From: an uncultured Rhodoblastus sp.
GTDB lineage: Bacteria; Pseudomonadota; Alphaproteobacteria; Rhizobiales; Beijerinckiaceae
Length of the DNA stretch: 64,000 nucleotides
NCBI GenBank assembly: GCA_964634325.1
Contig: CAZWJF010000009.1
Span: 94,028-158,027, forward strand
Reading direction: 5' to 3'
Part shown: positions 38,021-57,073 of the stretch, piece by piece
Position numbering within the stretch: position 1 is the stretch's first letter
How the letters are laid out: each line of letters opens with the position of its first letter
Notes under the pieces: model-generated
The model's input: the letters and a program-made list of their open reading frames with translations, nothing else
Told to the model about the DNA's origin: nothing
Databases searched by the model: none
Translations under genes and position numbers: made by a program

Positions 38021-39808
38021 ATGACCTATCGCGCGCCTGTTTCCGACATGATCTTTGCGATGAACCACGCAGCCGGCCTGCAAAGCGGGATCGAGAGCGG
38101 CGTGTACGCCGATCTTGCGGACGGCATGGCCGAGACGATGCTCAACGAGGCCGCGAAATTTGCCGAGAACGTTCTCAATCCCCTGCATCGCGACGGAGAC
38201 CGCATCGGCGCGAAGTGGGCGGACGGAGTCGTCACGACGCCGCCCGGCTGGATCGACGCCTATCGCCAGTTCGTCGAGGGCGGCTGGCAGAGCATGACTG
38301 GCGGCGCCGGCCACGGCGGGATGGGTCTGCCGCAGGTGCTGCTGGCGGGCTGTCTCGACATGTGGAGCGCCGCCAACATGGCCTTCATGCTCGGTCCCGT
38401 GCTCACCTTCGGCGCGATCGACGCGCTGGAGGCTCATGCGTCGGACGAGATCAAGCACACCTATCTCGAGAAGATGATCTCCGGCGTCTGGCCGGCGACC
38501 ATGAACCTGACCGAGCCCGGCGCCGGCTCCGACCTGAACCCGCTGCGCACAAAGGCCGAGCGCCAGCCGGATGGAACCTACAGGATTTCCGGGCAGAAGA
38601 TTTTCATCACCTACGGCGAGCACGATATGGCGGAGAACATCGTCCACCTCGTGCTTGCGCGCCTGCCGGATGCGCCGGGGGGGACAAAGGGCATCTCGCT
38701 GTTCGTCGTGCCGAAGTTTCTGGTGAACGCCGACGGTTCGCTTGGCGCGCGCAACGACGTGCGCTGCGCCGGCATCGAACACAAGATGGGCATTCACGGA
38801 TCGCCGACCTGCATCATGGTCTATGGCGACGCCGGCGGCGCCACGGGCTATCTCGTCGGCGAGGAGAACAAGGGGCTGGCCTGCATGTTCACGATGATGA
38901 ACGACGCACGGCTCGCCACCGGCCTGCAGGGCGTCGCCATCGGCGAGGCCTCGTATCAGCATGCGCTGGCCTACGCGCAGGAGCGAAAGCAGGGCCGCGC
39001 CGAAGGCGCTCCCGGATTAGCGCCGATCATCGCCCATCCAGACGTCAAGCGTATGCTGATGACCATGAAGGCGCTGACCGAGAGCGCGCGGGCGATCTGC
39101 TATCTCACCGCCGGCGTGATCGACCGCTCGCGTCGCGAAGCCGACCCCGCCGCGCGCAAGGCGGCTGGCGATCGCGCCGGCCTGCTGACGCCCATCGCCA
39201 AGGCCTATTCCGGCGACATCGGCAACGAAGTGTCCTCGCTCGGCGTGCAGGTTCATGGCGGCATGGGCTTCATCGAGGAGACGGGCGCGGCGCAGTTCAT
39301 GCGCGATTCCCGCATCATCTCGATTTACGAAGGCACGAACGGCATCCAGGCGATCGACCTCGTCACGCGCAAGCTGCCGCTCTCCGGCGGCGCCGTGATT
39401 CGCGCCGAAATCGCCGACATGCGCGCCGTTGCGGAAGCCCTGCGCGCGACCAACGATCCGGCGTTCGGCGCGAGCGCGCAGCGTCTCGCGGAAGCGATCG
39501 ACGCGTTCGATCGCGCGACCGCTTTCATGCTCGACAAGGTCGCCAGCGCGCCGCAGGACGCGCTGGCTGGCGCGACGCCCTATCTGCGGCTGTTCGGCCT
39601 CGTTCGCGGCGGCGCCTCGCTCGGCGCCATTGCGCTAGCCGCCCATGCCGCGCGCGTCGCCGGCGAGAGCGCGCCGACCCATGCGAGCCGCATCGCTGTC
39701 GCGCGCTTCTTCGCCGAGAATATCGTGACGGGCGCGGGCGGACTCGAGACGGCGATCGTCGGCGCGGCGGAGTCGGTTCTGTCGGCGGACATCGCGCTCG
39801 CGATGTGA
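38021..39808 (+). CDS. Large acyl-CoA dehydrogenase with extra C-terminal domain (FadE/AidB-like)
   Basis: 595 aa. ...[11 protein letters not shown]..., ...QVHGGMGFIEETGAAQFMRDSRIISIYEGTNGIQ..., plus ~150 aa of additional helical C-terminus. Confidence 0.85.
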   Translation: MTYRAPVSDMIFAMNHAAGLQSGIESGVYADLADGMAETMLNEAAKFAENVLNPLHRDGDRIGAKWADGVVTTPPGWIDAYRQFVEGGWQSMTGGAGHGGMGLPQVLLAGCLDMWSAANMAFMLGPVLTFGAIDALEAHASDEIKHTYLEKMISGVWPATMNLTEPGAGSDLNPLRTKAERQPDGTYRISGQKIFITYGEHDMAENIVHLVLARLPDAPGGTKGISLFVVPKFLVNADGSLGARNDVRCAGIEHKMGIHGSPTCIMVYGDAGGATGYLVGEENKGLACMFTMMNDARLATGLQGVAIGEASYQHALAYAQERKQGRAEGAPGLAPIIAHPDVKRMLMTMKALTESARAICYLTAGVIDRSRREADPAARKAAGDRAGLLTPIAKAYSGDIGNEVSSLGVQVHGGMGFIEETGAAQFMRDSRIISIYEGTNGIQAIDLVTRKLPLSGGAVIRAEIADMRAVAEALRATNDPAFGASAQRLAEAIDAFDRATAFMLDKVASAPQDALAGATPYLRLFGLVRGGASLGAIALAAHAARVAGESAPTHASRIAVARFFAENIVTGAGGLETAIVGAAESVLSADIALAM

Positions 39809-39886
39809 CGAAAACGTAGTGAACGAAACCTTTTCGATACCAATCCTGCCTTAGACTGCCGCCTCGTTCCACCGAGGCGGGCTCTC

Positions 39887-40561
39887 TTGCAAGTCGATCT
39901 GTCGGGCAGGGTTGCGCTGGTGACAGGCGCGAGCAGGGGCATCGGCGCCGCCGTTGCGTTCGCTCTGGGCTCCGCCGGCGCGAGAGTGGTCGGTGTCTCT
40001 CGAGCGCAGGGCGTCGACCTGCTCGATCGCGACAGCCGCGCAAAGCTCGATGCGGATGTCGACATCCTCGTGAACTGCGCCGGCATGCAGGCGTCGTCTC
40101 CGGCGCTCGACTATCGGCTCGATATCTGGGACCGCGAAATCGAGATCAATCTGACGGCGATGTTCGATCTCGCGCGTCGCGCCGCGCCCTTCATGATCGC
40201 GCGCGGCTGGGGGCGCATCGTCAATTTCACGAGCATTGCGGGAATTCAGGGCACGCGCGGAATCGTCGGCTATTCGGTCGCCAAGGCCGGCGTGATCGAA
40301 CTGACCAAATGCCTCAGCAACGAATGGAGCCCTCACGGCGTCACGGTCAATTGCGTCGCGCCCGGTTACATCGAAACCGAGATGCTGAGGCCCCTGACCG
40401 GCAACCCCGCCGCGGCTGAGACGACCAAAGGACGAATCCCGATCGGACGGTTCGGCGCGCCTGAAGAAGTGGCGAGCGCGGTCCTGTATCTGTGCAGCAA
40501 TGAATCGAAATACATCACCGGCGTCACGCTGCCGGTCGATGGAGGATGGATGGCGAGATGA
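39887..40561 (+). CDS. Short-chain dehydrogenase/reductase (compact, 224 aa)
   Basis: TTG start. VALVTGASRGIG, NCAG, YSVAKAGV (YxxxK), PGYIETEM. Its stop overlaps the radical-SAM start as ATGA. Confidence 0.8.
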   Translation: MQVDLSGRVALVTGASRGIGAAVAFALGSAGARVVGVSRAQGVDLLDRDSRAKLDADVDILVNCAGMQASSPALDYRLDIWDREIEINLTAMFDLARRAAPFMIARGWGRIVNFTSIAGIQGTRGIVGYSVAKAGVIELTKCLSNEWSPHGVTVNCVAPGYIETEMLRPLTGNPAAAETTKGRIPIGRFGAPEEVASAVLYLCSNESKYITGVTLPVDGGWMAR

Positions 40562-41598
40562 AGATTCAAACGATCGACCTTCGGCATAACAAGCGGGTCA
40601 ATCTCGGCGAGGCGGCCCCGTTGCCCGCGCCGTTTTCGCTGTACCTCGAGCCAACCAGCCTGTGCAACATGCGCTGCGAATTCTGCCCGACCGGCGATGC
40701 GAACCTGCGCAAGCAGCGCCCTAACGGCATGATGGATCTGGCGCTGGTCGACAAGCTCGTCGCCGATATCAAGGATTGGGGGATCCAGCTTCGCCGCATC
40801 AATCTCTACAAGGACGGCGAGCCTACGCTGCACAAGCAATTCGTGGAGATCGTCGAGACCCTCAAACGGGGCGCCGTTGCCCGAGAATTGTGGACCAAGA
40901 CGAACGGCCTGCTGCTGAACCCCGATCTCAACCAGCGGCTGATCGGAAGCGGACTCGACATGATCGGCGTGTCGATCAACGCGGTCAGCGGCGACGGCTA
41001 CATGCGGGTGACGCGCACGAAACTCGATTACGACAGACTCGTCGCCGGCGTGACAGACCTGTGCGAGCGCGCAAAGTCGGCGAATGTCCGCGTCCTCGTG
41101 AAGATCGCGGATTCGGGCTTCACGCCGGAGGAAATCCAGAAATTCCATTCGGACTTCGCAGCGGCGCAATATCTGTCGGTCGAGCAATTGCACGGCTGGG
41201 CCGCGTCCGACGCCAAGGACTGGACGCTCGGCACGAACCCCACGACATTCGAGGGCGCTGCGCTGACCGACAAGATCGCGTGCCCGCTCCCCTTCTTCAT
41301 GCTCGCTGTCAACTGGAACGGAACGGTCGGCCTGTGCAACGACGACTGGCTGCACGCCACATTGTGCGGCGATCTGCGCAAGCAGTCTCTGAAGGACATC
41401 TGGCACGGCGAGGAGTTGCGCAAGCTGCGTCTCATGCATCTCGAGGACCGTCGCCGGGAGAACGGGGCCTGTGGCAATTGCAGCAACCTGCGCACGCTGC
41501 CGGACAACATCGACGCTCATCGCCTCGGCATCTGGAAGCGGATGCACGAGCGCAGCGAGGCAGAGGCGGGGAGCGACGCCGGCAGGATCGCGGTGTAG
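40558..41598 (+). CDS. Radical SAM enzyme with C-terminal SPASM/twitch-like Cys-rich domain
   Basis: 346 aa from ATG 40558. CNMRCEFC (CxxxCxxC). C-terminal cysteines CPLPFF...GLCNDDW...LCGDL...ACGNCSN. Confidence 0.8.
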   Translation: MKIQTIDLRHNKRVNLGEAAPLPAPFSLYLEPTSLCNMRCEFCPTGDANLRKQRPNGMMDLALVDKLVADIKDWGIQLRRINLYKDGEPTLHKQFVEIVETLKRGAVARELWTKTNGLLLNPDLNQRLIGSGLDMIGVSINAVSGDGYMRVTRTKLDYDRLVAGVTDLCERAKSANVRVLVKIADSGFTPEEIQKFHSDFAAAQYLSVEQLHGWAASDAKDWTLGTNPTTFEGAALTDKIACPLPFFMLAVNWNGTVGLCNDDWLHATLCGDLRKQSLKDIWHGEELRKLRLMHLEDRRRENGACGNCSNLRTLPDNIDAHRLGIWKRMHERSEAEAGSDAGRIAV

Positions 41599-41610
41599 GC
41601 CCGCAACGCG

Positions 41611-42576
41611 TCAGAAGTTGATGCGTTCCTTCTCGATCACGAGCGGAAAATTGCGCGCGTAGTTCAGCAAGAGGCCAATGTATTCTCCGACGACGCCGAG
41701 CGCGAAGAGCTGTATCGAACTCAGGAAGAACACCGCGATCAGAACCGGCGCGACCCCGATCGGAAAGCTGTTCCAGAAGAGCAGCTTGACGATGAGGTAG
41801 ACCAACCCGGCCGCGAAACTGAGCAACGACGCGAAAAAGCCGAGAAACGTCATCAGCCGCAGCGGCGCGCGCGAGGAAGTCGACAGGCCGACAAGCGCGT
41901 AGTCTGCGAGCGAATACAGCGTGTAGCTGGAGCGCCCGTGCCGGCGGGGCGGCTGTTCGTATTCGACGAATGCGCGCTCGAACCCGACTTCCATCACGAG
42001 GCCCCGGAAGTAGGGTTCCGGTTCGTTGAGGGCGCGCATGGCGTCGATCACGCAGCGATCGTAGAGCCCGTATCCCATGTAATGCGGGATTTGTTCGATC
42101 TTCGACAGCCGCCGGATGAGCCAGTAGAAGGCGCTGCGCGCGAGCCCCAGAAGCGGATTCTCGGGCATCGGCTTCTTGACCGCGATGACGGTCTTGGCGC
42201 CCTGTCGCCACAGGCGAACCATTTCGGGGATGAGCGACGGCGGGGTCTGCAGGTCGGCCAGGACGGGCACGACCGCGTCGCCGCTCGCCAGAAGCGTCGC
42301 GTGGAACGGCGACCGCTGCGGCCCGAAATTGCGGGAATTGACGATCACCTTGACGCGCTTGTCGCCGGCGGCGATCTCCCGCAGCAGATCGACCGTACGG
42401 TCGCGCGAGCAATTGTCGATGAAGATGTGCTCGTAGGAGACGTCCGCCAGGTCGCGCGCCATGACGTCGCGGACGCTCTCGTAGCAGGCGACGATGCCGC
42501 CTTCCTCATTGTAGCAGGGCGTGACGATGCTCAGGACGGGCATGGACGAAGGCTCGGTAGCGTAAGCGCGCACCAT
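41611..42576 (-). CDS. GT2 polyprenyl-phosphate glycosyltransferase (GtrB/ArnC/DPM1-like)
   Basis: 321 aa. LSIVTPCYNEE...FIDNCSRD (DxD-like)...SRNFG... and two C-terminal TM helices ending VVGEYIGLLLNYARNFPLVIEKE, the hallmark of lipid-phosphate sugar synthases. Confidence 0.85.
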   Translation of the reverse strand: MVRAYATEPSSMPVLSIVTPCYNEEGGIVACYESVRDVMARDLADVSYEHIFIDNCSRDRTVDLLREIAAGDKRVKVIVNSRNFGPQRSPFHATLLASGDAVVPVLADLQTPPSLIPEMVRLWRQGAKTVIAVKKPMPENPLLGLARSAFYWLIRRLSKIEQIPHYMGYGLYDRCVIDAMRALNEPEPYFRGLVMEVGFERAFVEYEQPPRRHGRSSYTLYSLADYALVGLSTSSRAPLRLMTFLGFFASLLSFAAGLVYLIVKLLFWNSFPIGVAPVLIAVFFLSSIQLFALGVVGEYIGLLLNYARNFPLVIEKERINF

Positions 42577-42588
42577 GCCGGATCATCA

Positions 42589-43736
42589 TTAATTTTCCGC
42601 CATCGCGCCGGCCGTCAGGTTCGGAGGCTCTGCGACGCGCATGCGTTTCAGCCAAGCGGTCAGGCGACGATTGGCTGGCGCTTCGAATTTCGTGTGAATG
42701 GCCGAGGCGAGCGCCATGGCGAGCGCGGCGAACAGCAGCGTGGCGATCTCGCCCGTCCACGCATTCGCAAGCAGGGCCGGAGCGAACAGCAGCAGCGCGA
42801 TCTTGTAGAGCGGCAGCGCGAGCGCGTGCGTCATGTAGAGCGCGAAGGAAGCCTCGCCCGCTGCGACGAGCGGCTTCCAATGCAGGAACGACGCCCTGCC
42901 GGCCATGTCGCGCGCACCCAGCGACGCGATGAGAACGAGCGCGCCCGGAACGAATAGATAGTTGAGCGTCGCTTCGCTCTGGACATTCTGCGCGCCGTCG
43001 CGATGCAGCGCAAACGCGACGACCATCAGGCCGAGGCCGAGAAGCGGATGACCGAAACGCCATCGCCGCGCACCAGGACGGCGGCGAGCCCGCCGAGCGC
43101 GAACTCCGCGAAATGCGGCAGGGGATGGTGCTTCAGAAAGTCTGACGCTCCCGCCGCGTCCGTCGCGGCGGCTGCGATCGCCGCGCCGAGGACGCCGACA
43201 TAGGCGCCGCATGCGATTGTCCCGACCGACACGCGATTGGCCAGCAAGGCGCGGAAGAACGAGGGCGCGACAAGGTAGAAGGCGAATTCGCAGGACAGCG
43301 ACCATGACACGCCGTTCCATGCCTGCCGGATTTCCGGAGCGCCGATCGTCAGGTCGTGCAGCAGCAGGAAGTTGAGAACGGTCCCGCCAGGCGTTCCCTC
43401 GTAGCCTCCGATCGGCGCGCCGAGCAGGGCGAACAGCCAGAGCGAGACGAGCAGCGTCGCGACATGCAGCGGATAGATGCGAAAGATGCGGCGGGCGATG
43501 AAATCGCCCCATGTCGCGCGCCGGTCGAAGCCGTACATCAGCACGAAGCCCGACAGGACGAAAAACAGCGGCACGCCGAGCCAGCCGACCTCGCCGAGCG
43601 CGCGGACGACAGGAAAATGCGGCCAGGCGTCGCGCGTGTGATGCACCACGACCGCCAGCGCCGCGAAGGCGCGCAGCGACGTGAGCGCCGGAAGGACGCG
43701 CGGAGGCGAAGGCGTAGGGGCGACGGCCTGGTGCAT
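42589..43736 (-). pseudogene. Acyltransferase-3 (OafA-type O-acyltransferase) gene interrupted by a frameshift
   Basis: The N-terminal 2/3 is in one frame (43736->43026: LTSLRAFAALAVVVHH...WSLSCEFAFY...). The C-terminal 1/3 is in another frame (about 43075->42589: GHPLLGLGLMVV...LVAAGEASFALYMTHALAL...). The span is 1148 nt, not divisible by 3. Confidence 0.7.
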
Positions 43737-43813
43737 GGCCGCAATTTAGACGACGCGCATTGAACGCCTGTTCCAGGCTTGTCTCAAAGCCGATGCGCTT
43801 TGTTAAGCCGGTG

Positions 43814-45223
43814 TTAACCGGCGCGACGAGCCAGCGACGCCAGCGCCGAGACCGGCAGCAGGCGGTCGTCGATATAGAAGTCCGCGGCCGGTTTGCCGAA
43901 GTGCAATTCGTGATAACGCAGGCCCCAGCGCGCAAATTGATCCTCGGTCACCTTCCGCCAGTCCATGCCTGTGGCCGATCCGCGTGCGGTGAACATCACG
44001 ATGCGATGGCCCTGGTCGAAGAGCTCGTTGACCGCCGCAATCGCCTGCTCCAACGGTTCGGCGAGCGTGTAGTCATTGCCGGGCGTGAGGCTTGCGACGA
44101 CGCCGTCCACATCGACGACGAAGGTCAGCCGCGCATCGCTTGCATGTTCGTTCCGGTGGAGCGCCGGGCTCGGCGCGGGCGAGTGGCTTCGCGCGCGGGC
44201 ATGGTCGACCGTCTTGAGGATCGCCGAATCGAGCGACGTCCAGACGTCGAGGCCGAGCGCACGCGCCCGCGCGATCGAGGGAATGTAACGCGACCGCGCT
44301 GCATTCGCGTTCGCTTCGCCCTTGATGATTGCGCGTCGCCCGTCGGCCGCATGATGCGCGGCCTTGCGCGCGAGATCGCCAATCGCAATCGGCTCGTCGG
44401 AGCCGACGTTATAGGCGGCCCCCGCGCGGCCTTTCGCCAGCAGCGTCAGAAGCCATACTGCAAGATCGCCGGCGTAAAGATAGCTGCGCAAGGGCGAGCC
44501 GTCGCCCGCGACGACAACGTCGCGCCCGGCGACCGCGTCGCCAATGAAATTGCCGATCGCGAAATGCGCATCGAGCGGCAGGCCGGGTCCAACGAAGGCG
44601 AAGGCGCGCGCGATCACCGGCTGCAATGCGCCCTTCGCCATGGCGCATACGCACATCTGTTCGGCGACCCGCTTCGCCTGTCCGTAGGCCGAGCGTGGAT
44701 CGCATGGATCTGGCGCGCCACGATAATCCTCGTCGATGGCGTCGATGTCGGTTGGTTGGGGGCCGTAGACCGCGCCTGAACTGACGTAGAGCAGGCGCTC
44801 GGCGCGGGCCGCCGCGGCGAACTCGAGCACGCGCGCCGTTCCCGAGACAATCGTGTCGATCAGCGTCGCGGAATCGGAATCGGCCGCGACGCTTGTGTCC
44901 GTCGCCGCGTGAATGACATGACTGAAGCGGCCTTTCGGAAATTCGAAATAGCGCACGTCGCCATGCGCGAGGCTGATCGCCGCATGGTCTGCGAGCGCAG
45001 GATATGCAGCCCGGAACGCTTGCGGATTGCGCGTGAGCGCTGTGGCGCGAATGCCGAATTGGCGGTGCGCGCGCGCGATCGTCGCAAGCAGCCAGCGCCC
45101 GAAGAATCCCGTGCCGCCGGTGATGAACAGATTTGCGCCGCGCAGGCTCTCGAGCGCCGGGCCGCAATGCGCGATCGCCTCGTCGAGATCGCGCGGATCG
45201 AGCCCGTCGTAATCCTCGGTCAT
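43814..45223 (-). CDS. NAD-dependent sugar epimerase/reductase (extended SDR) fused to a HAD-like phosphatase domain
   Basis: 469 aa. N-terminal ~330 aa has ITGGTGFFG and SAYGQAK (YxxxK). The C-terminal ~120 aa has FVVDVDGVV (DxDG nucleophile motif)...MFTARG...GKPAADFYIDDR. ATGA overlap with the upstream ThDP enzyme. Confidence 0.8.
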   Translation of the reverse strand: MTEDYDGLDPRDLDEAIAHCGPALESLRGANLFITGGTGFFGRWLLATIARAHRQFGIRATALTRNPQAFRAAYPALADHAAISLAHGDVRYFEFPKGRFSHVIHAATDTSVAADSDSATLIDTIVSGTARVLEFAAAARAERLLYVSSGAVYGPQPTDIDAIDEDYRGAPDPCDPRSAYGQAKRVAEQMCVCAMAKGALQPVIARAFAFVGPGLPLDAHFAIGNFIGDAVAGRDVVVAGDGSPLRSYLYAGDLAVWLLTLLAKGRAGAAYNVGSDEPIAIGDLARKAAHHAADGRRAIIKGEANANAARSRYIPSIARARALGLDVWTSLDSAILKTVDHARARSHSPAPSPALHRNEHASDARLTFVVDVDGVVASLTPGNDYTLAEPLEQAIAAVNELFDQGHRIVMFTARGSATGMDWRKVTEDQFARWGLRYHELHFGKPAADFYIDDRLLPVSALASLARRAG

Positions 45224-47106
45224 GCCGGTTCGCGCGCCGCGGCTTTCGGCAGGAGATGCGCTGGCGCGGAGTCAGACGCGGGGTCGAGCGGTACGATCAT
45301 GTTGGCCCGCAGTTCGTCGCGCGGCAGAAGCGGCGACATGTCTTCGAGCGGCATGGAGCGCATCGATCCGTCGGCCTGCGGCAGCGCGGCCGATTTCGGG
45401 AAGAGCGCTTCGTCGGCGACGACTTTCACGTCGACCAGCAGCGGCCCGCAATGCGACAGCGCGCGTTGCAGACCCTCGTGCAGATCGGCCGCGTCTTCGA
45501 TCCGGAAGGCTTCCCATCCGAATGTCTTCGCCAGCGCCACGAAATCCGGAATGTCGAGCTTTCCGGCAGATCCGCTGCCGACATATCGGCCATCGAAGTA
45601 GTTGCGCTGCGTATTGCGGATCGAGGCGTAGCCGTTGTTGTTGAATACGATCAGCCGTAGCGGAATCTTCTGGCTGGCGATGGTCTGCATCTCCTGCAGA
45701 TTCATCATCAGCGAACCGTCGCTTTCGATTCCCACGAACGGCCGGCGATCCGACGCCATATAGGCGCCGATCATAGCGGGCAGCCCATAGCCCATCGCAC
45801 CGAGGCCCGAAGTCAGGAAGACGCGCTGGCCTTCCTTGTTCTGAAAGCCCGTGTAGAAAAATTCGATTGCGAGGCCCGAGCTTCCGGTGACGATCAGCGA
45901 ATGCGCCGGCAATTCATCGGACAGCGCTTGCGTCAAATGGAAGTGGCTGATGGGGCCGCGCGTCGGAAACGGGGCGCCGTCGTTGATCGGATAACGCCGC
46001 TTCCAGTCCGCGCAGCGCGCGAGCCACGCGCTGCGGTCGCGCGGGTTCGACTGGCGCGCAATCGGGATCATCGTCTCGATGAAATCGCGCGCGTCAGCCT
46101 GCACGCGCAGGACGAAGCTTTCGACGCCATCGAACTTGGCGAGCTCAGCCGGGTCGACGTCGACCATCACTTTCTTCGCATGTCGTCCGAATTTTTCCGG
46201 ATTGTGCGCGGTCACCACATTGTCCAGCCGGGCGCCGACAGCGATCACGAGATCGGAATTCTGGATCGCGAAATTCGGAGCGCGCAATGCGACGACGCCC
46301 GGCTTGCCGACGCTGAGCGGATGATCGGCGGGCGCCAGGTCGGTCGCGTTCCAGGTCGTCACGACCGGAATGCGCAAGGTCTCGTAGAGCGTGCGAAACT
46401 GCTCGGCGGCTTCCGCCAGACGAACGCCGTGGCCAGCAAGGATGATCGGCCGCTCGGCCTCCTCGATCAGGTCCATGATTTGCGCGCAAGCGTCGCTAAG
46501 CGCGGCGCTCGAATCTGAAGAAACCGGGGCGTCGAAAGGACGAAGCGAGGCGGGATCGATGGAAGCCGCCTGCACGTCGAGCGGTATGTCGATCCAGACG
46601 GGGCCGCGCCGGCCTGTCGTCGCCAGATGGACAGCTTGTTCGAGATGAACACGTATGTCCTGCGGATCGAGCACGGTCGCCGCATACTTGGTGATCGGCC
46701 GGACGATGGAGACGATGTCGACTTCTTGCGGCCCCATCTGGCGCACACCGCTGTCGCCCATCATGTCGGACCGTTTCACCTGACCCGAAATGATAAGAAG
46801 CGGCACGGATTCGATCCACGCGCCGGCGCAGGCCGTCACGGCGTTCGTGCCGCCGGGCCCCGTCGTCACGAGCGCGCAGCCGAGATGGCCGTTGACGCGC
46901 GAATAGGCTTCCGCAGCGATCGAGGACGCCTGTTCGTGATGGTTGGGCACATAGTCGAGCCCCGGCGTATTGCCGAAGGCGTCGCAGAGATACATCGCTC
47001 CGCCGCCGGGGACGAGAAACACAGAGCCGACGCCCTGGTCGCGAACGAAGGCGGCGACATAGTCCGCGAGACGAATCGTATTCGGGCCGGTCATGCGCGC
47101 GTCCAT
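45220..47106 (-). CDS. Thiamine-diphosphate enzyme of the acetolactate-synthase superfamily (YerE-like candidate)
   Basis: 628 aa. N-terminal Pyr domain (VFLVPGGGAMY...HHEQASSIAAEAYSR...TTGPGGTNA). ThDP motif IESDGSLMMNLQE-X-LIVFNNNGY (DG-X24-NN). Confidence 0.85.
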   Translation of the reverse strand: MDARMTGPNTIRLADYVAAFVRDQGVGSVFLVPGGGAMYLCDAFGNTPGLDYVPNHHEQASSIAAEAYSRVNGHLGCALVTTGPGGTNAVTACAGAWIESVPLLIISGQVKRSDMMGDSGVRQMGPQEVDIVSIVRPITKYAATVLDPQDIRVHLEQAVHLATTGRRGPVWIDIPLDVQAASIDPASLRPFDAPVSSDSSAALSDACAQIMDLIEEAERPIILAGHGVRLAEAAEQFRTLYETLRIPVVTTWNATDLAPADHPLSVGKPGVVALRAPNFAIQNSDLVIAVGARLDNVVTAHNPEKFGRHAKKVMVDVDPAELAKFDGVESFVLRVQADARDFIETMIPIARQSNPRDRSAWLARCADWKRRYPINDGAPFPTRGPISHFHLTQALSDELPAHSLIVTGSSGLAIEFFYTGFQNKEGQRVFLTSGLGAMGYGLPAMIGAYMASDRRPFVGIESDGSLMMNLQEMQTIASQKIPLRLIVFNNNGYASIRNTQRNYFDGRYVGSGSAGKLDIPDFVALAKTFGWEAFRIEDAADLHEGLQRALSHCGPLLVDVKVVADEALFPKSAALPQADGSMRSMPLEDMSPLLPRDELRANMIVPLDPASDSAPAHLLPKAAAREPA

Positions 47107-47111
47107 GCCTC

Positions 47112-48638
47112 TCAGATCCAGTAGCGCAGGATCGTCTTGCGGTTCGGATTCTCGTTGATCGCTTCATCGGTGTAGAAGGAGTCGTTGACGAAATGCGTCG
47201 ACGAAATCTCCTCGAACACCGCGCCGGTGTCGCTCTCGAAAGCGTGCCGGACGCCCGGCGCGATGGTCACGACCGCGCCCGGTCCGCAGATGCGCTCTTC
47301 GCCGTCGAGCTGCAATTTCAATTCGCCATGCAGGACGTGGAAGGTCTCTTCCTTCAGCTTGTGGAATTGCTCGGGATGTCGCTGACCGGGCAGGACGACG
47401 ATGAGCTTCTTGCAGTAGCCGCGGTTCACGACGGTCACCATGGTCAGGCCATAGGCGTCGAACCGCTCGATCCCGAAGTGATGCGAAATCTCCAGTTCCG
47501 CCTCGCCTGGCACGACGCCCTTGCTCTCCTTGAGCAATTGCTTCACCCGTCCGACGATGGACAGCACCTTGGCGCGAACTTCCTTGCGCTCGGTCGCTTC
47601 CGCCATGACGGGCGCGTCGGCCGGCAGGTCGCGCGTCGCCGTGAATTGCGAATACTTCGACCAGTCGTTGGCGGTTATCTGTCCGGACTGCGTCGGAATC
47701 GCGAAGAACACGTCGTCCGATTTGATCCTTTGTCCCTTGGCGACCGGGCGTTTGAGGAACGCGCCGCGACGCAAATCGCGCAAGGCGGCGAGTTCGTCCG
47801 GGGTGGGATCGATGCGCTCGCCGACGACGCCGGCGATTTGATAGGCCTTGCGCGCCGCTTCGAGCCAGGCGCGGGCCTGCTGCGGATTGGCGGAATAGTT
47901 GTTCAACGGATAGGCGTCGGTCGGCACGCCGATATGCTTCTCGAACAACGCCGCGCCTTTGGCGATCGCCATGGCCACAGGCATGGTCTCGTTCGGATCC
48001 TCGTGCGTCGAATAGCCGATGCGCAGCTGCGGATAGCGATGCTTCAATATGTCGATCTGGTTGAGCTGCAACGCCGCGTTCTGCGTCGGATATTGCGCGA
48101 CGCAGGCCATCAGCGCGAAATCCTTGTCGCGGTGCGTCAGGAACGCCACGACATTGTCCATGTCGGAATATTCGACGCCCGCAGTCGAGCCGACGATCGG
48201 CAGATTGACGGTCGCGATCTTTTCGAGCAGCGGCCAGTCCGTGAACGAGCAACTGGCGATTTTCAGTATGTCGAACCCGTCTTCGACGATGCGGTCCACG
48301 GACGGTTCGTCAAACGGCGTGCACATCGCCAGAAAGTCGTTGGACTTGATCTCGTCCACCAGACGTCTCGTCTCGTCACGGCTCAACCGCGTTTCCGAAA
48401 AGCGCTTGATGTACTTGATGTCCATACGGCCCTTGAAGGCCGGATGGATGAAGGTGTCGAGCTCGCGAAACTGCAGCTTGAAGGCGAAAGTGAAATCGAA
48501 ATCCTTCGCGAGAGCGCCGAACTCCCGGATGACGCGCAGTCCGTGTTCGACGTCGCCCATGTGATTGTTGGCGAGTTCGAAGATGAACAGCGGATTGGGC
48601 AGGCTGTTGCGCGGCATGGCGACCGTCTTGTCCAGCAT
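47112..48638 (-). CDS. NeuB-type sialic-acid-synthase-like domain + SAF domain + C-terminal cupin (D-lyxose/mannose-isomerase-like)
   Basis: 508 aa from ATG 48638 (GAGGGA upstream). LFIFELANNHMGD...FKLQ...KIASCSFTDWPLLEKIA...PIVGSTAG...YSTHE...FEKHIG (NeuB TIM barrel). LRRGAFLKRPVAKGQRIKSDDV (SAF). QRHPEQFHKLKEETFHVLHGELKL...GVRHAF (cupin). Confidence 0.8.
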   Translation of the reverse strand: MLDKTVAMPRNSLPNPLFIFELANNHMGDVEHGLRVIREFGALAKDFDFTFAFKLQFRELDTFIHPAFKGRMDIKYIKRFSETRLSRDETRRLVDEIKSNDFLAMCTPFDEPSVDRIVEDGFDILKIASCSFTDWPLLEKIATVNLPIVGSTAGVEYSDMDNVVAFLTHRDKDFALMACVAQYPTQNAALQLNQIDILKHRYPQLRIGYSTHEDPNETMPVAMAIAKGAALFEKHIGVPTDAYPLNNYSANPQQARAWLEAARKAYQIAGVVGERIDPTPDELAALRDLRRGAFLKRPVAKGQRIKSDDVFFAIPTQSGQITANDWSKYSQFTATRDLPADAPVMAEATERKEVRAKVLSIVGRVKQLLKESKGVVPGEAELEISHHFGIERFDAYGLTMVTVVNRGYCKKLIVVLPGQRHPEQFHKLKEETFHVLHGELKLQLDGEERICGPGAVVTIAPGVRHAFESDTGAVFEEISSTHFVNDSFYTDEAINENPNRKTILRYWI

Positions 48639-48749
48639 CGACTGCTCCCTCGGATCGCCGGCTGCGTCGGCGCAAATCAATTGATGTCGGCGCTCGCGGG
48701 CGCCTGATGAGACTCACGACCAGTCTCGCGGCGGAGGGTAAATTTTTCC

Positions 48750-50339
48750 TTAGCGGCTGTCCGCCTTTGGAACAGTTTTCCCGCTCACTCCAGGGGAGAA
48801 GGTCGGATCGACGCCATAGCCGAAATCCGGCCAGCACTGGCGCACGTCGACGGGGCGATGCGTCGCGCCGTCGGAGTTCATCAACCAGGCCGGCATCGTC
48901 CGGCGGTCGACCGCGTAATTGCTCGGCGCGTCCTCGCCGGCCAACGCCGCATTGGCTTCAAACAGCGAGCAATCGCTGATCGGATACCGCTGGAAGACGG
49001 CGGCGCGCGTGAGTTCGACGGCGGCCGAGGGCGCGCAGAGCCCGAGGACCAGAGCGCCGAGATAGCGTGCGAACGTGCCGCGGCGCGCCGGATCGAGCAG
49101 GACAGAGCCGAAGCAGAAGGCCACAATCGTAAGCGCCGAAATCGAGCCGCGCATCACCAGATCGTTGGCAGGTCCAAACCGCCCGAGCGGCAGGGCGACG
49201 AGCAGGATCAGGCTGAAGATCAGCAGACCGCGGTCCGCGGAGGGCACGTAGCGTCGGTACAGCGCGATATAGCCGACAGGAACGAAAGCGGCGAGGATGA
49301 AGACGATATAAAGCAGCCAGAATTCTTCGCGGTCGCTGCTCAATCCGTGATCGATCGTCTCCGCGCCGATGACCATATAGGCCGCGACCGGGATGAAGCC
49401 CACGGCGACCGCGGCCACCGACCACAGTCGCGCGGAGGTCAGGCTGACCCGAAAATTCGCGGCGATCCGAAGCACGATCCACAAGGCTGCGGGCAGGATG
49501 GCTAGCGGCGACCAGAACAGGGCGCCGCCGATGGAAACGGCCACGGTCGCCTCGTCGAGCTGACGTCGCGCGAGCAGCAACAGCAGCATGGCCAGCCACC
49601 AGCCTGGCAGCGCATGGTTCGGAACCCAGAAGAACTGGACGAGAGACGCGGAATACTGGAAATGCGGGTTCCAGGAATCAAAGCCGATATAAAGCAACCG
49701 GCCGAGCGTGAGCGGCATTTCGCCGACCATCACCAGCACGATGCCCAGCGCCGAACAGCCAGCGAGCAGAACCATGACGACGACATGCCGGAACCCGTGT
49801 CCGATCGTGGCGATCAGATAGAAGACGGCGCCGAGAAACAGGCTGTTCTGCGCGAACAACGCGACATGAGCGGCGTACAGGCCAAACGCGCGGCCGACGA
49901 GGGCCGGCAGCATATACATGCCGAGCGGCGCGCGCGTGACGTAGTCGACGCCTTTGTAGTCGTAGGCAGACGGAAAACCCGTCGTGACGAGATCGCCGAG
50001 CACCGCGTCGCGGATGCGCCAGTCGAGCGGCGTGTGAAGCAGATGCAACTGTCCGCCCAGAAGGAAGATCGCTGCGGCGAACGCGACCGCGACCGCAAGA
50101 CGGTTGCGCTGGATCGGTTCGTCGAGAAGGCCGTCGCAGGACGGCGCGCGCGCGATGAGGACCATCGCGCCGACGCACGCTCCAAGAAGAAGGGCTGCAG
50201 GCGCAGGGCGCAAATGCAACGCAAGCAACGCCGACGACGCGAACATCAGGAACGAGGTGAAAGCGACGAGCGCGCGGTTGGTCAGCGTCGCGCTGCGGAC
50301 CGATGCGCTGACGTCCGAACCAACCGCGAAATCGCTCAT
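48750..50339 (-). CDS. Large polytopic membrane protein, candidate GT-C-type lipid-carrier-dependent glycosyltransferase (GtrC analogue)
   Basis: 529 aa from ATG 50339 (ATGA overlap with the gtrA stop). More than 12 predicted TM helices and a ~100-aa non-hydrophobic C-terminus. The function is positional inference only. Confidence 0.5.
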   Translation of the reverse strand: MSDFAVGSDVSASVRSATLTNRALVAFTSFLMFASSALLALHLRPAPAALLLGACVGAMVLIARAPSCDGLLDEPIQRNRLAVAVAFAAAIFLLGGQLHLLHTPLDWRIRDAVLGDLVTTGFPSAYDYKGVDYVTRAPLGMYMLPALVGRAFGLYAAHVALFAQNSLFLGAVFYLIATIGHGFRHVVVMVLLAGCSALGIVLVMVGEMPLTLGRLLYIGFDSWNPHFQYSASLVQFFWVPNHALPGWWLAMLLLLLARRQLDEATVAVSIGGALFWSPLAILPAALWIVLRIAANFRVSLTSARLWSVAAVAVGFIPVAAYMVIGAETIDHGLSSDREEFWLLYIVFILAAFVPVGYIALYRRYVPSADRGLLIFSLILLVALPLGRFGPANDLVMRGSISALTIVAFCFGSVLLDPARRGTFARYLGALVLGLCAPSAAVELTRAAVFQRYPISDCSLFEANAALAGEDAPSNYAVDRRTMPAWLMNSDGATHRPVDVRQCWPDFGYGVDPTFSPGVSGKTVPKADSR

Positions 50340-50791
50340 GTCGCGCTCCGGAAGACAAAGTCGCGGCTCAGGACGTAGGAAATCGTCACGGCGCCGGGCA
50401 GAAGCAGCAGGCCGGCGAGCCATGGTGCGACATGAGCTTGCTCCAGAGCCGCGAGACCAGCCGCGTTGTAGACGAACACCACGCCATAGACGCCGAAGAA
50501 CCGGACGAGATTGCCGGCGCCGTGGGCGCGGAACACGAAGCGTCCGGTCGTGCGGAAGTTGAACAGAATGCCGAGGATCGTCGAGATGACGAGCGCAGAA
50601 AACGTCGTCGGCATGATCGCCAGCGCGACAAGGAATAATCCGTATCCGAAAGCCGTATTCACGCCGCCGACGATCAGAAACCGCAAGACTCGGTGGCGTT
50701 CCAGCAGGCCGCGCGTCGAGGCGACGATGTTGTGAAGCCCAGCGCGGCGTGGCGCGGGTCGCTCCTCGCGATCGTCGACGGACGGAATCAC
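50336..50791 (-). CDS. gtrA: GtrA-family small membrane protein (lipid-linked sugar translocation)
   Basis: 151 aa. ...[18 protein letters not shown]... and four TM helices ending [14 protein letters not shown] overlap with the upstream ddhC stop. Confidence 0.8.
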
Positions 50792-52131
50792 GCGACCTCG
50801 CGCGGCAGATTGCGGGCGAGGCCGCGCAGCGTCTCGATGACGAAATCGATTTCAGCCTCGCCGAGGCCCGGATAGACGCCGATCCAGAATGTACGGTCGA
50901 CCACGATATCGGCGTTCGTCAGCGGGCCGGCGATGCGATAGTCGCGGCCCTTCATGTACGGCTGGCGCACGAGATTTCCGCCGAACAGCAGACGTGTGCC
51001 GATGTTGCGCGCCTGCAGTTCGAGCAGCAGAGCATGGCGCGACAGCGGCGCGTCCTTGCGCAGGGTGATCGGAAATCCGAACCACGAGGGTTCCGTTCCC
51101 GGCGTCGCCTCCGGCAGGATGAACACGTCCTCAAGCGACGCGAGGCCATCGCGCAACCGTGCGAAATTGCGACGGCGCGCGGCGATGAATTCGTCGAGGC
51201 GTTCGAGCTGCGCGACGCCCACCGCCGCCTGCATGTCGGTGATCTTCAGATTGTAGCCGAGATGCGAATAGACGTACTTGTGATCGTAGCCCTTGGGCAG
51301 GTCGCCGAGCCGCCAGCCGTAGCGCTTGTTGCAGCTGTTGTCCTTGCCTGGATCGCAATAGCAGTCGCGGCCCCAGTCGCGAAACGATTCCATGATCTTG
51401 TCGAGATTGGCGTCGTTCGTGAACACAGCGCCGCCCTCGCCCATCGTGATGTGATGGGCGGGATAGAAGCTCAGCGTGCCGATGTCGCCGAACGTGCCGA
51501 CATGCTTTCCGCCCACGGTCGCGCCGAGCGCGTCGCAGCAATCTTCGATCAGAAACAGGCCATGCCGATCGCACAACTTGCGGAGCGCCAGCACGTCGAA
51601 CGGATTGCCGAGCGTGTGGGCGACCATGATCGCGCGCGTGCGCGGTCCGATCGCCGCTTCCAGGGCCGCGACGTCGATGTTGTAGGTCGGTATGTCCACA
51701 TCGACAAAGACGGGGACCATATTGTGTTGCAGGATCGGATTGACGGTGGTCGGAAACCCGGTCGCACAGGTTACGACCTCGTCGCCGGGCTTGAGTTGAC
51801 GCTGCTTGAGGCGCGGCGAGGTGAGCGCCGAAAACGCGACCAGATTGGCCGACGAGCCGGAATTGACGGTCAACGCGTATTTTGCGCCGATGCGGCGGGC
51901 GAGTCTGTCCTCGAATTCGTCGTTGAACCGGCCCGTCGTCAGCCAGAAGTCGAGTGCGGAATCGACCAGCATCTGCATGTCGCGCGCGCCGTAGACGCGG
52001 CCCGACACCGGGACGTTGGGGCGTGAAGGATCGAAGGGCGCACGCTGATGCGCGGCCGCGTGATAGCGCGCGGTCAATTCGAGAATCTGGGCGCGCAGCG
52101 CCTGCGGATCGTCAGGCGCGCTTGCGCTCAT
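50788..52131 (-). CDS. ddhC: CDP-6-deoxy-L-threo-D-glycero-4-hexulose-3-dehydrase (E1; RfbH/DdhC)
   Basis: 447 aa DegT/DnrJ-fold. [14 protein letters not shown] (His in place of the Schiff-base Lys). Cys pattern DC-C...(57 residues)...[11 protein letters not shown] equals C-X57-C-X1-C-X7-C. Confidence 0.9.
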
Positions 52132-53242
52132 GGCGGGGCTCTTGTGTCGGGCGGTCGACGACGCCGGCGTGGGGAGCGTCGAGACGCACGCGTTGACCGA
52201 GATAGGAATCGACCTGTTCGAATGTCGCGCGCCGCACGTCGTCGCCGCGTGCGTAGGCGCCGTACCAGGCGGCCGTCCACGCGAGCGCTTCGTCGAAATC
52301 GAGCAGCGGGCGCCAGCCGAGCGTCGCGTTCGCGCGCGACGTGTCGAGCCGCAGGAGATTGGCTTCGTGCGGATGATGCGCCCGATCGTGCGTCCATCCG
52401 CCGTCGACGCCCATCGCGCGATAGAAGGCGTCGAGCAATTGCGCGACGTTGCGCTCGCCTTCGACGCCCGGACCGAAATTGAATCCGCCTGATACTCCCT
52501 CCTGCGTCAGCGTTCGTTCCGCGAGCAGAAGGTAGCCGTAGAGCGGCTCCAGCACGTGCTGCCAGGGCCGCACGGCGCCGGGGCTGCGAACCATCAGCTT
52601 TTCGCCGGCGATCCGAGCGCGCACGGCGTCGGGCAGGATCCGGTTTTCCGCGAAGTCGCCGCCGCCGATGACATTGCCGGCGCGCGCCGATACGACGCGT
52701 ACGCCGGTCGCGGCGAGAAAGCTCTCGGAATAGGCGGAGGTCACGAGTTCAGCGCAGGCCTTGCTGCTGGCGTAAGGATCGCGGCCGCCGAGACGGTCGG
52801 TCTCGCGATAGCCCCAAACCCATTCCCGGTTGTCGTAGCACTTGTCGGTGGTGACCACGACGACGGCGCGCACGCTCGGCGTTCTGCGAACGGCCTCCAG
52901 CAGCGCGACTGCGCCCATCACGTTCACGCGGTAGGTCTCGACCGGATCGCGATAGCCCCAGCTGACCAGAGGCTGCGCGGCCATGTGGAACACGATGTCC
53001 GGTTCGCTCGCAGCCAGCGCCGCCTCGAGCGGGGCGAGGTCGGCGATGTCCCCGCGCCGGTCGTCGATCAGCGCCCCGGCGCCGATCATGTCGAACAAGC
53101 TCGGATTGGTCGGCGGCGCCAGTGCGTAGCCGGTCGCGCGCGCATTCAGCCGCTCCAGCATCGCCGACAGCCATGCGCCCTTGAAGCCCGTGTGGCCGGT
53201 GACGAAGACGCGTTTGCCGCTCCAGAAGGAGGAGGAGATCAC
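52112..53242 (-). CDS. rfbG: CDP-glucose 4,6-dehydratase
   Basis: 376 aa from GTG 53242 (GTGA overlap with the rfbF stop). [20 protein letters not shown]..., YASSKACAE (YxxxK). The 73-codon upstream extension of the track ORF overlaps rfbF and was rejected. Confidence 0.88.
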
Positions 53243-54009
53243 CAGCGCCTCCACTTCGCCTGGTCCGACGCCCATTCCTCTTCCAGGAACATCTTGTCGC
53301 GCAGCGTATCCATGGGATGCCAGAAGCCGTCGTGCAGATAGGCGCGCATCTGGTCCTCGTCGACCAGACTCGACATGGGGCCGCGCTCCCAGATCGTTTC
53401 GTCGCCCTCGATGCGGTCGATCACGCGCGGCGACAGCAGGAAGAAGCCGGCGCTGACCCAATCTTCGCGGTTTTCAGGCTTTTCGCGGAACGAGAGAATT
53501 CGGTCGCCGGTCAGGTTGATCTCGCCGAACTGGCGCTTCGGCCGGACGGCGGCCACCGTAGCAAGCCTGCCGTGCGCGCGATGAAACGCAAGCTCCGCCC
53601 TGAGGTCGATGTCGGAGACGCCGTCGCCATAGGTCAGCGCGAAAACGTCGTCGTCTTGCAGATGGTCGCGGACGCGCTTGATTCGCCCGCCGGTCATCGT
53701 CCTTTCGCCCGTATCCACCAGCGTGACGCGCCAGGGTTCGGCGGTCTGGCGATGCACTTCCATGCGATTGTTGGCCAGGTCGAACGTGACGTCCGACATG
53801 TGCAGGAAGTAGTTCGCGAAAAATTCCTTGATGTAATAGCCCTTGTATCCCAGGCAGATCACGAACTCGTTGAACCCCTGCGACGAGTATATTTTCATGA
53901 TGTGCCAGAGGATCGGCCGGCCGCCGATTTCGACCATGGGCTTGGGCCGGATCGTCGTTTCCTCGACGAGCCGCGTGCCTAGCCCGCCGGCGAGGATGAC
54001 GACCTTCAT
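53239..54009 (-). CDS. rfbF: Glucose-1-phosphate cytidylyltransferase
   Basis: 256 aa. MKVVILAGGLGTRL.EET..RPKPMVEIGGRPILWHIMKIYS..GF.EFVICLGYKGY.IKEFF.NY is the RfbF signature. Confidence 0.92.
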   Translation of the reverse strand: MKVVILAGGLGTRLVEETTIRPKPMVEIGGRPILWHIMKIYSSQGFNEFVICLGYKGYYIKEFFANYFLHMSDVTFDLANNRMEVHRQTAEPWRVTLVDTGERTMTGGRIKRVRDHLQDDDVFALTYGDGVSDIDLRAELAFHRAHGRLATVAAVRPKRQFGEINLTGDRILSFREKPENREDWVSAGFFLLSPRVIDRIEGDETIWERGPMSSLVDEDQMRAYLHDGFWHPMDTLRDKMFLEEEWASDQAKWRRW

Positions 54010-54134
54010 GGGTTTCCGTTTCGCGTCTGCGCCGCGCGGGCGCTCCGCCGCGAATTTTCAGGCGAACTCACTTAAATTTCGGTGAATTTGGGCCCTGTCG
54101 CGGTAACAATTCGCGCCGGCCGACGTCGCTTTCG

Positions 54135-56893: not shown

Positions 56894-57073
56894 TTCCCCC
56901 GTCCGCAGGCCGGATGCGTCGCGACGTCAAAGCCAAGTTCAAGCCAGTGCGGCCGACGTCATGGTCGCCGATGTACTGAAGGCGGCGACCATTTGTTCCT
57001 CCTAGTCGATCCATCTGGCGTTGCAAAGCGACCAAAGTCGATGCGCGCCCTGCGATGCAGGGACGTCACACCA

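Follow-up and report, generated by a model that had tools for sequence, protein, structure and literature searches.

A thiamine diphosphate (ThDP)-dependent enzyme is encoded within a cluster of nucleotide-sugar genes in the 64,000-nucleotide stretch of uncultured Rhodoblastus sp. DNA analysed here (the window). We consider it probable that this protein is a carboligase of the subclass represented by MMAR_2332 of Mycobacterium marinum and MyGE of M. gastri, which attach long branches to sugars, and that it acts in the proposed pathway to a caryophyllose-like sugar. Judging from sequence comparisons, the most likely product would be a caryophyllose-type C12-C13 4-C-branched 3,6-dideoxyhexose and not yersiniose, because the clade, the synteny and a neighbouring gene for a NeuB-cupin fusion protein all match those of MMAR_2332/MyGE. 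The acceptor is most likely CDP-4-keto-3,6-dideoxyglucose produced by RfbF, RfbG and RfbH, and the NeuB-cupin enzyme most likely supplies the donor. A preliminary description of the window had proposed YerE-like, two-carbon branching of a CDP-ketosugar. A sugar-branching carboligase beside genes for a CDP-4-keto-3,6-dideoxyhexose is indeed observed, but it is not closest to YerE (29% identity to PpYerE). The two-carbon branch is not supported either, as the protein is a ~69% orthologue of the C6/C7-branching MMAR_2332/MyGE, with the same neighbours and a conserved NeuB-cupin gene upstream.

The open reading frame (ORF) at 45220-47106 (-) starts with ATG and codes for 628 aa. Pfam recognises TPP_enzyme_N, TPP_enzyme_M and TPP_enzyme_C in the product (110, 118 and 126 bits, respectively, all well above the cut-offs), in agreement with its previous assignment to the acetolactate-synthase superfamily. 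The ThDP motif reads GIE-S-D-G-SLMMNLQEMQTIASQKIPLRLIVF-NN-NG, that is, SDG-X24-NN. The spacing given previously (DG-X24-NN) is therefore exact, with the first Gly of the canonical GDG replaced by Ser (S-D-G are residues 462-464, codons 45718-45726). With this variant motif, the catalytic Glu (in the context HHEQA) and three domains, the protein agrees with the YerE type in these general features (a GDG-X24-27-NN-like motif, the catalytic Glu and the three domains). The gene overlaps the downstream ORF 43814-45223 in an ATGA arrangement (stop codon at 45220-45222, ATG of the next ORF at 45221-45223), and the product of this second ORF matches Pfam Epimerase with 127 bits, so that the coupling to an extended short-chain dehydrogenase/reductase (SDR) noticed earlier is confirmed. 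The same can be said of the nucleotide-sugar operon with E1, since RfbF, RfbG and RfbH are encoded on the same minus strand and score above curated cut-offs. The genes needed for the argument are the following:

53239..54009 (-): RfbF, glucose-1-phosphate cytidylyltransferase (TIGR02623, 413 bits, cut-off 300)
52112..53242 (-): RfbG, CDP-glucose 4,6-dehydratase (TIGR02622, 449 bits, cut-off 278)
50788..52131 (-): RfbH/DdhC (E1), CDP-6-deoxy-4-hexulose 3-dehydrase (NF011936, 724 bits, cut-off 423; 56% identical to its mycobacterial counterpart)
50336..50791 (-): small membrane protein of the GtrA family (PF04138, 53.7 bits; the mycobacterial loci also have a GtrA gene)
48750..50339 (-): polytopic membrane protein of 529 aa, possibly a GT-C-type glycosyltransferase with a GtrC-like role (weak fold matches)
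47112..48638 (-): NeuB-type TIM barrel with SAF and C-terminal cupin domains, putative synthase of a long 3-deoxy-2-ulosonic (alpha-keto) acid (Pfam, synteny)
45220..47106 (-): ThDP-dependent carboligase of MMAR_2332/MyGE type, 'YerE-like' in the broad sense, 628 aa (Pfam, identity, structure match, tree)
43814..45223 (-): extended SDR fused to a small HAD-type phosphatase domain, candidate YerF/MygF-like side-chain ketoreductase (Pfam Epimerase, 127 bits)
41611..42576 (-): GtrB/ArnC/PgfS-like family 2 glycosyltransferase (GT2) with two C-terminal transmembrane helices, candidate polyprenyl-phosphate sugar synthase (PF00535, 77 bits)

A unifying scheme for branched sugars of this kind has been proposed, and partly demonstrated, by Steitz et al. 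(2022, PMC9306805). According to these authors, YerE adds an acetyl group from pyruvate to CDP-4-keto-3,6-dideoxyglucose, and ErwE of Pectobacterium atrosepticum, MMAR_2332 and MyGE add hydroxylated acyl chains of C4, C6 and C7, respectively. The C6 and C7 polyhydroxyacyl branches are those of caryophyllose (MMAR_2332) and 'gastriose' (MyGE). The alpha-keto acid donors come from a neighbouring 'aldolase', and a NAD(P)H reductase acts after the ThDP step. With regard to donor range and stereochemistry, MMAR_2332, MyGE and ErwE are characterised in the literature; all three take gamma-hydroxylated and long alpha-keto acids, and ErwE rejects pyruvate (PMC9306805). Additionally, deletion of MMAR_2331, MMAR_2332 or MMAR_2333 in M. 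marinum has been reported to cause the accumulation of a lipooligosaccharide (LOS), LOS-II*, that is devoid of caryophyllose (PMC9306805, PMC5706390).

The window protein is 69% identical over 623 residues to an M. marinum protein (P0080) in BLASTP, and also 69% identical to an M. gastri protein (P0081, UniRef A0A1X1V9W3_MYCGS) that was taken as MyGE by organism and context. In a large protein database, the most similar proteins (76-87% identity) belong to Beijerinckiaceae, Rhodoblastus, Methylocystis, Methylobacterium and Enterovirga, and a tier at ~69% contains M. marinum, M. gastri, M. szulgai and M. canettii. The likeness extends to the neighbouring genes. The M. gastri-type and M. marinum loci (L001/L002 and L082) contain GtrA, an RfbG-like SDR, a DegT/E1 protein, an NTP-transferase, a GT2, a NeuB-cupin protein (511 aa), the ThDP enzyme, an HAD gene overlapping the ThDP stop codon, a 353-aa SDR and large membrane proteins, one of them with a faint GT87 (GT-C) match. 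In tblastn comparisons between the window and its mycobacterial counterparts, the two proteins specific for the side chain form the best-conserved pair (69% identity for the ThDP enzyme and 62-63% for NeuB-cupin), followed by RfbH (56%), RfbF (48%), RfbG (46-48%), GT2 (33%) and SDR (30-36%). In both lineages, the NeuB-cupin gene lies directly upstream of the ThDP gene. The correspondence of NeuB-cupin to MMAR_2331/MygI and the general mapping of genes to MMAR_2331/2332/2333 rely on gene position and on the descriptions in the papers.

There are also differences. The window comes from an alphaproteobacterium (Hyphomicrobiales, by its nearest relatives), whereas the mycobacterial hosts are actinobacteria, and no polyketide synthase or LOS context surrounds the window locus. 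The window reductase carries a small HAD domain as a fusion, whereas the mycobacterial HAD protein is unrelated and comes from a separate gene (235 aa). Several island genes add to this list, namely the split acyltransferase gene, the second cysD-cysNC copy, the SDR and radical-SAM pair and the gene for the membrane protein of putative GT-C-like type. By contrast, the C-terminal extension of the ThDP enzyme and the RfbF/RfbG/RfbH, SDR, GT2 and GtrA set are common to both.

NeuB-family enzymes form 3-deoxy-2-ulosonic acids by condensing phosphoenolpyruvate (PEP) and an aldose, and the member encoded here, only 5 nt upstream of the ThDP gene, is the sole one in the genome. It matches the Pfam families NeuB (120 bits) and Cupin_2 (42 bits) and, weakly, Lyx_isomer. 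For the TIM barrel, PDB 3g8r is a very close match (E 2e-125), and the cupin weakly matches D-lyxose/mannose isomerases. No gene for a CMP-sugar activating enzyme of the NeuA/KdsB type was seen among the island ORFs scanned, so that the NeuB product is not obviously a glycosyl donor itself.

The preliminary description had suggested a phylogeny, and the one obtained here groups the window protein with sugar-branching enzymes and away from acetohydroxyacid synthase (AHAS), although PpYerE falls outside its clade. The maximum likelihood tree (LG+G4, SH-aLRT support) covered 74 sequences and was rooted on five paralogues from the window's own genome. The sequences of PpYerE and JanthE, a 'YerE-like' enzyme of Janthinobacterium sp. 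HH01, were taken from PDB alignments, and YpYerE, ErwE and the Rhodopseudomonas palustris enzyme were left out. The window protein belongs to a 41-member clade (SH-aLRT 96) that includes the two mycobacterial enzymes, and 37 of these members have a NeuB-cupin gene nearby. Within the clade, the mycobacterial pair is sister to the Hyphomicrobiales sequences (SH-aLRT 96) and is nested among proteobacterial ones. Going outward, a sphingomonad group is the sister clade, JanthE follows with Bacteroidota enzymes, and PpYerE is a long branch outside. Long branches make the root region and the position of PpYerE uncertain, but not the placement of the window protein in the NeuB-linked clade.

A scan of species-representative genomes yielded 79 loci, among which clade loci were defined by a ThDP protein of at least ~54% identity, with three Omnitrophota-type loci added at 45%. 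Of the clade loci, 43 extend far enough upstream of the ThDP gene to be informative, and 37 of these have the NeuB-cupin gene immediately upstream; four further loci have it within 2.2 kb. RfbH was seen in 34 loci, including the mycobacterial ones. The clade with this neighbour comprises ~50 species of Hyphomicrobiales, Magnetococcales, Methylophaga, Methylophilaceae, Acidobacteriota and Omnitrophota. A second group (loci L051-L081), formed by sphingomonads and Bradyrhizobium canariense (L061), has ThDP proteins of 40-44% identity, an SDR directly upstream, RfbF, RfbG and GT2, with neither NeuB-cupin nor RfbH at the fetched loci; this composition suggests the branching of a 6-deoxy, instead of a 3,6-dideoxy, CDP-ketosugar with a different donor. 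In a third group, from Bacteroidota (36% identity), the enzymes are JanthE-like (E 2e-176 to 8rph) and are accompanied by RfbF and RfbH, and in two of three loci by RfbG, with no NeuB-cupin at the fetched loci.

The nesting of the mycobacterial enzymes among proteobacterial ones points to a horizontal spread of the whole pathway. Identities between the window and mycobacteria reach 62-69% for the ThDP enzyme and NeuB-cupin, and only 33-56% for other genes of the cluster. Taken with the nesting, the high identity of these two proteins is consistent with horizontal transfer of a side-chain module.

The window protein shares Ser at the first GDG position with 27 fetched relatives (28 of the 75 aligned sequences), all of them in the NeuB-linked clade. 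JanthE has Cys at this position, and the members from mycobacteria and Methylophaga have Gly. The change is a lineage-typical variant of the ThDP motif, comparable to the one studied in JanthE.

It could be argued that the gene codes for an ordinary metabolic ThDP enzyme, such as an AHAS isozyme, a catabolic acetolactate synthase, a glyoxylate carboligase or Xsc, that merely lies beside sugar genes. In fact, AHAS models are the best-scoring NCBIfam matches, and the large subunits of AHAS (IlvB/IlvI) have the same fold, the ThDP motif and the catalytic Glu. However, the protein is below every curated AHAS cut-off, scoring 388.9 bits against the 538.35 required by TIGR00118 (biosynthetic AHAS large subunit), whereas the true large subunit of the same genome, encoded on another contig (C1), scores 806.6 bits and is 31% identical to it. 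Moreover, the gene has no adjoining gene for a small regulatory subunit, is translationally coupled within a sugar operon and encodes a protein 69% identical to characterised branching enzymes. The product ends in a conserved extension (...PLEDMSPLLPR...) that lies beyond the end of the AHAS matches and is common to JanthE. A housekeeping AHAS or another metabolic ThDP enzyme is consequently ruled out, and this explanation can be considered effectively refuted. As the preliminary description had expected, the protein is separate from housekeeping AHAS and groups with characterised sugar-branching ThDP carboligases, albeit not most closely with YerE.

A more serious alternative, although we regard it as improbable, is chemistry of the YerE type. 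CDP-4-keto-3,6-dideoxyglucose would receive an acetyl (C2) branch from pyruvate, the SDR would reduce this branch to 1-hydroxyethyl, and a yersiniose-like C8 sugar would be formed, with NeuB-cupin used for some other purpose. The superfamily, the acceptor pathway genes and the SDR partner would all be the same. YerE (Yersinia pseudotuberculosis) and its structural homologue PpYerE are also ThDP-dependent, AHAS-like enzymes with three domains that transfer an acyl-anion equivalent onto the C-4 ketone of CDP-4-keto-3,6-dideoxyglucose before reduction by an SDR (YerF). Additionally, MyGE turns over pyruvate with benzaldehyde in vitro (40% conversion, PMC9306805). Nevertheless, orthology and synteny are shared with the long-branch enzymes, and PpYerE, besides being outside the window clade, is no closer to the window protein (29% identity) than the AHAS of its own genome is. 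Almost all members of the clade retain NeuB-cupin directly upstream, the sister clades do not have it, and, to our knowledge, the yersiniose pathway has no NeuB-cupin partner. A recent review (PMC12247030) describes the donors of YerE as restricted to pyruvate or 2-oxobutyrate (C2-C3) and the donor preference of MMAR_2332 as resembling that of ErwE, which rejects pyruvate.

Among solved structures, the window protein matches 8rph best (residues 8-608, E 2e-114), compared with E 8e-82 for E. coli AHAS I and 8.6e-71 for PpYerE (5ahk). According to the literature, 8rph is JanthE (PDB 8rph/8rpi/8rpj), a promiscuous enzyme with a CDG motif that takes long donors and ketone acceptors. JanthE thus resembles the window protein in its non-canonical first residue (Cys instead of Ser) and in its substrates as predicted here, but it is only 34% identical and belongs to a separate clade, together with Bacteroidota enzymes, without a NeuB-cupin neighbour. 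ErwE, which could be compared only by description, follows the same proposed scheme for the C4 branch of erwiniose, and an adjoining enzyme also makes its gamma-hydroxy alpha-keto acid. In that case, however, the donor comes from a pyruvate aldolase/dehydrogenase pair of the BphI/BphJ type and not from a NeuB-type enzyme.

The closest parallel in a related host is R. palustris CGA009, an alphaproteobacterium of the same order whose O-antigen contains a C-4-branched sugar (Marchetti et al. 2018). The C6 branch of this sugar is equivalent to that of caryophyllose, and its 3-O-methylation implies that O-3 is kept. Steitz et al. (2022, PMC9306805) proposed a matching gene cluster, which, as described, contains an 'aldolase' 58% identical to that of M. 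marinum, a ThDP enzyme and a reductase. The preliminary description was not aware of such a sugar in alphaproteobacteria of this kind, a remark that these reports make outdated. The R. palustris cluster differs in that it contains a SAM methyltransferase, whereas the window cluster has RfbH and no methyltransferase was seen in the island.

The R. palustris sugar also illustrates another alternative, somewhat less improbable than YerE-type chemistry but still unlikely in our view. The enzyme would belong to the same subclass and act on CDP-4-keto-6-deoxyglucose, leading to a 6-deoxy (3-OH) sugar such as that of R. palustris, or it would produce a side chain differing from that of caryophyllose in length or oxidation. 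The retention of O-3 in R. palustris, the sister clade that works without RfbH, the failure to find an E3-like gene in the window, the 82 related loci or the genome, and the hints of further tailoring given by the HAD domain and the extra SDR and radical-SAM pair would all fit. On the other hand, RfbH is full-length, scores 724 bits as an E1 protein and is conserved in the 34 clade loci mentioned above. The mycobacterial loci, where no E3 was seen either within the +/-10 kb fetched on each side, nonetheless give a 3,6-dideoxy product, and the lack of a visible methyltransferase also sets the island apart from R. palustris.

Several observations weigh against a caryophyllose-type pathway in the window. 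With no E3/AscD found, 3-deoxygenation is incomplete on paper. This [2Fe-2S]-flavin reductase was searched for with Pfam FAD_binding_6 and a crude regular expression in the window, the 82 related loci and the 96%-complete genome. As the motif screen ([2Fe-2S] and FNR motifs, over the window and the 82 loci) was a crude one, its result is to be read as 'not found' and not as 'absent'. The three FAD_binding_6 matches in the genome are not AscD-like (a 4Fe-4S ferredoxin-FNR fusion, a VanB-type protein with a C-terminal 2Fe-2S and a plain Fpr). The 'aldolase' of PMC9306805 is described as using pyruvate, which does not match a NeuB family that normally uses PEP. The in vitro use of pyruvate by MyGE leaves room, on sequence grounds, for a short donor, and the equation of the M. 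marinum protein with MMAR_2332 of strain M is based on organism name and context, not on the accession. Finally, the HAD domains of the window and the mycobacteria show no BLAST-detectable relation, and the assignment of the 529-aa membrane protein to GT-C is weak. Pfam and NCBIfam searches gave no match for this protein, which is conserved in eight related Hyphomicrobiales loci at 34-50% identity. Its AF2 model (pLDDT 77.7, pTM 0.85) produced high-probability Foldseek matches that were all GT-C enzymes (PglB, AftD, ArnT, EmbB and AftB), though with E values of at least 0.013 and TM scores of 0.3-0.4.

If the caryophyllose-type reading is correct, the following order of steps can be proposed from gene content and from the characterised relatives. 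RfbF, RfbG and RfbH (E1), with some electron donor in the place of E3, would form CDP-4-keto-3,6-dideoxy-D-glucose. In parallel, the NeuB-SAF-cupin protein would produce a C7-C8 3-deoxy-2-ulosonic acid, that is, a gamma-hydroxylated alpha-keto acid. Its family would imply the condensation of PEP with an aldose, which the cupin could possibly supply through isomerisation. The ThDP enzyme would then decarboxylate the ulosonic acid and transfer the resulting C6-C7 acyl-anion equivalent onto the C-4 ketone of the CDP-sugar, giving a tertiary alcohol. The branch left after decarboxylation of a C7 or C8 ulosonic acid on ThDP would be 2'-deoxy, polyhydroxylated and six or seven carbons long, exactly as in caryophyllose or 'gastriose'. 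Next, the SDR domain of the fusion protein would reduce the C-1' ketone of the side chain, as YerF does, and the HAD domain would remove a phosphate from some intermediate. The caryophyllose-like 4-C-(polyhydroxyalkyl)-3,6-dideoxyhexose might subsequently be loaded onto polyprenyl phosphate by the GtrB-like GT2, flipped by GtrA and moved, outside the cytoplasm, to an envelope glycan by the 529-aa membrane protein.

The role of the downstream SDR proposed in the preliminary description, similar to that of YerF, fits these data, as most related loci, in all three clades, have an SDR homologue close to the ThDP gene. The identity of the window SDR amounts to 43-49% with the SDRs encoded beside the sister-clade enzymes and to 30-36% with the mycobacterial SDR of 353 aa. 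The fused HAD-type domain, which had escaped the earlier reading, consists of ~125 C-terminal aa (~residues 345-469; window 43814-44200) with the nucleophile motif DVDGV. It weakly matches TIGR01689 ('capsule biosynthesis phosphatase') and HAD-IIIA, as well as PDB 9iqw ('capsule biosynthesis protein', E 5e-10). A HAD phosphatase is thus encoded beside the ThDP gene in both lineages, the mycobacterial one being a separate 235-aa gene of the HAD_2 type (L082:11889-12596). The occurrence of such a phosphatase in both lineages, albeit of unrelated types, suggests a phosphorylated intermediate. In several Methylocystis and Enterovirga loci, neither HAD type was seen within 10 kb.

The combination of GtrA, a GtrB-like GT2 and the conserved 529-aa membrane protein suggests transfer through polyprenyl phosphate. 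Within this Gtr-type set, GtrA is recognised with 53.7 bits and the GT2 has two C-terminal hydrophobic helices, whereas the third component has only weak GT-C fold matches. The GT2 scores 162 bits on NF047588 (PgfS) and 97 bits on ArnC, under the cut-off in both cases, and is 33% identical to the mycobacterial GT2 adjoining NeuB-cupin. With respect to rfbG, the TIGR02622 match begins at residue 79 of the long ORF, and the true start of the gene is probably the ATGA overlap with rfbF.

A more speculative extension, which we put forward as a tentative possibility, is that this Beijerinckiaceae/Rhodoblastus-like bacterium produces an undescribed C12-C13 4-C-branched 3,6-dideoxyhexose whose side chain is built by a three-step logic similar to that of KDO. 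A cupin aldose-ketose isomerase, a NeuB-type condensation of PEP onto a phosphorylated aldose and a HAD phosphatase would act in turn, and the product, instead of being activated with CMP, would be decarboxylatively fused onto the CDP-ketosugar. Delivery to a periplasmic acceptor would follow the Gtr-type polyprenyl-phosphate route, perhaps with tailoring by the radical-SAM/SDR pair or sulfation (second cysD-cysNC).

The ThDP orthologue is rare in the order, as a sample of 400 genomes from this order, one of them of the same genus, contained none at E <= 1e-170. In this same-genus genome (G394, contig C54), the homologues of window positions 38021-39801 (the flanking acyl-CoA dehydrogenase gene) and 57115-57253 are only 59 nt apart. 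The ~17.3 kb missing at this syntenic site (window ~39802-57115) contain the SDR/radical-SAM pair, the entire glycan cluster and cysNC-cysD. The locus is a patchy, horizontally distributed glycan island.

Caryophyllose-type sugars are rare and have so far been described in Burkholderia caryophylli, two mycobacteria (M. marinum and M. gastri) and, in a modified form, R. palustris. The present locus makes an envelope sugar of this type predictable from sequence in soil and peat alphaproteobacteria, where none has been looked for, and it extends the published MMAR_2332/MyGE long-branch scheme while leaving the scheme itself unchanged. In addition, the variants with Ser for Gly in the ThDP motif are further candidates for carboligases with long donors and ketone acceptors, which are of interest in biocatalysis for the production of chiral tertiary alcohols.

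The remaining genes of the island are the following:

54135-56893 (-): cysD and fused cysN-cysC, for 3'-phosphoadenosine-5'-phosphosulfate (PAPS) synthesis, just upstream of rfbF and within the island
42589..43736 (-): Acyl_transf_3 (OafA-type) gene in two frames (Pfam profile positions 3-200 and 205-319 in different frames)
39887-41598 (+): FabG-like SDR and radical-SAM/SPASM gene, convergent with the cluster, the SDR gene overlapping the start of the radical-SAM/SPASM gene

The cysD-cysNC genes are a second copy, with cysD/cysN paralogues on two other contigs (C11 and C137). No sulfotransferase was recognised in the window, and in none of the 82 related loci does cysD-cysNC adjoin the cluster. 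The frame of the Acyl_transf_3 gene is split near 43026-43077, which would indicate a pseudogene or an assembly error, and nothing is encoded here in the locus most closely related to that of the window (L003). ORF 40366-41547 (-) and the N-terminal part of 42589-43935 (-) were discarded as wrong-frame artefacts of high-GC DNA. Finally, homologues of the radical-SAM/SPASM protein (30-34% identity) are encoded near the NeuB-cupin/ThDP pair in 13 related loci, none of them mycobacterial, and in one locus (L014) the identity reaches 76% for this protein and 79% for the SDR.

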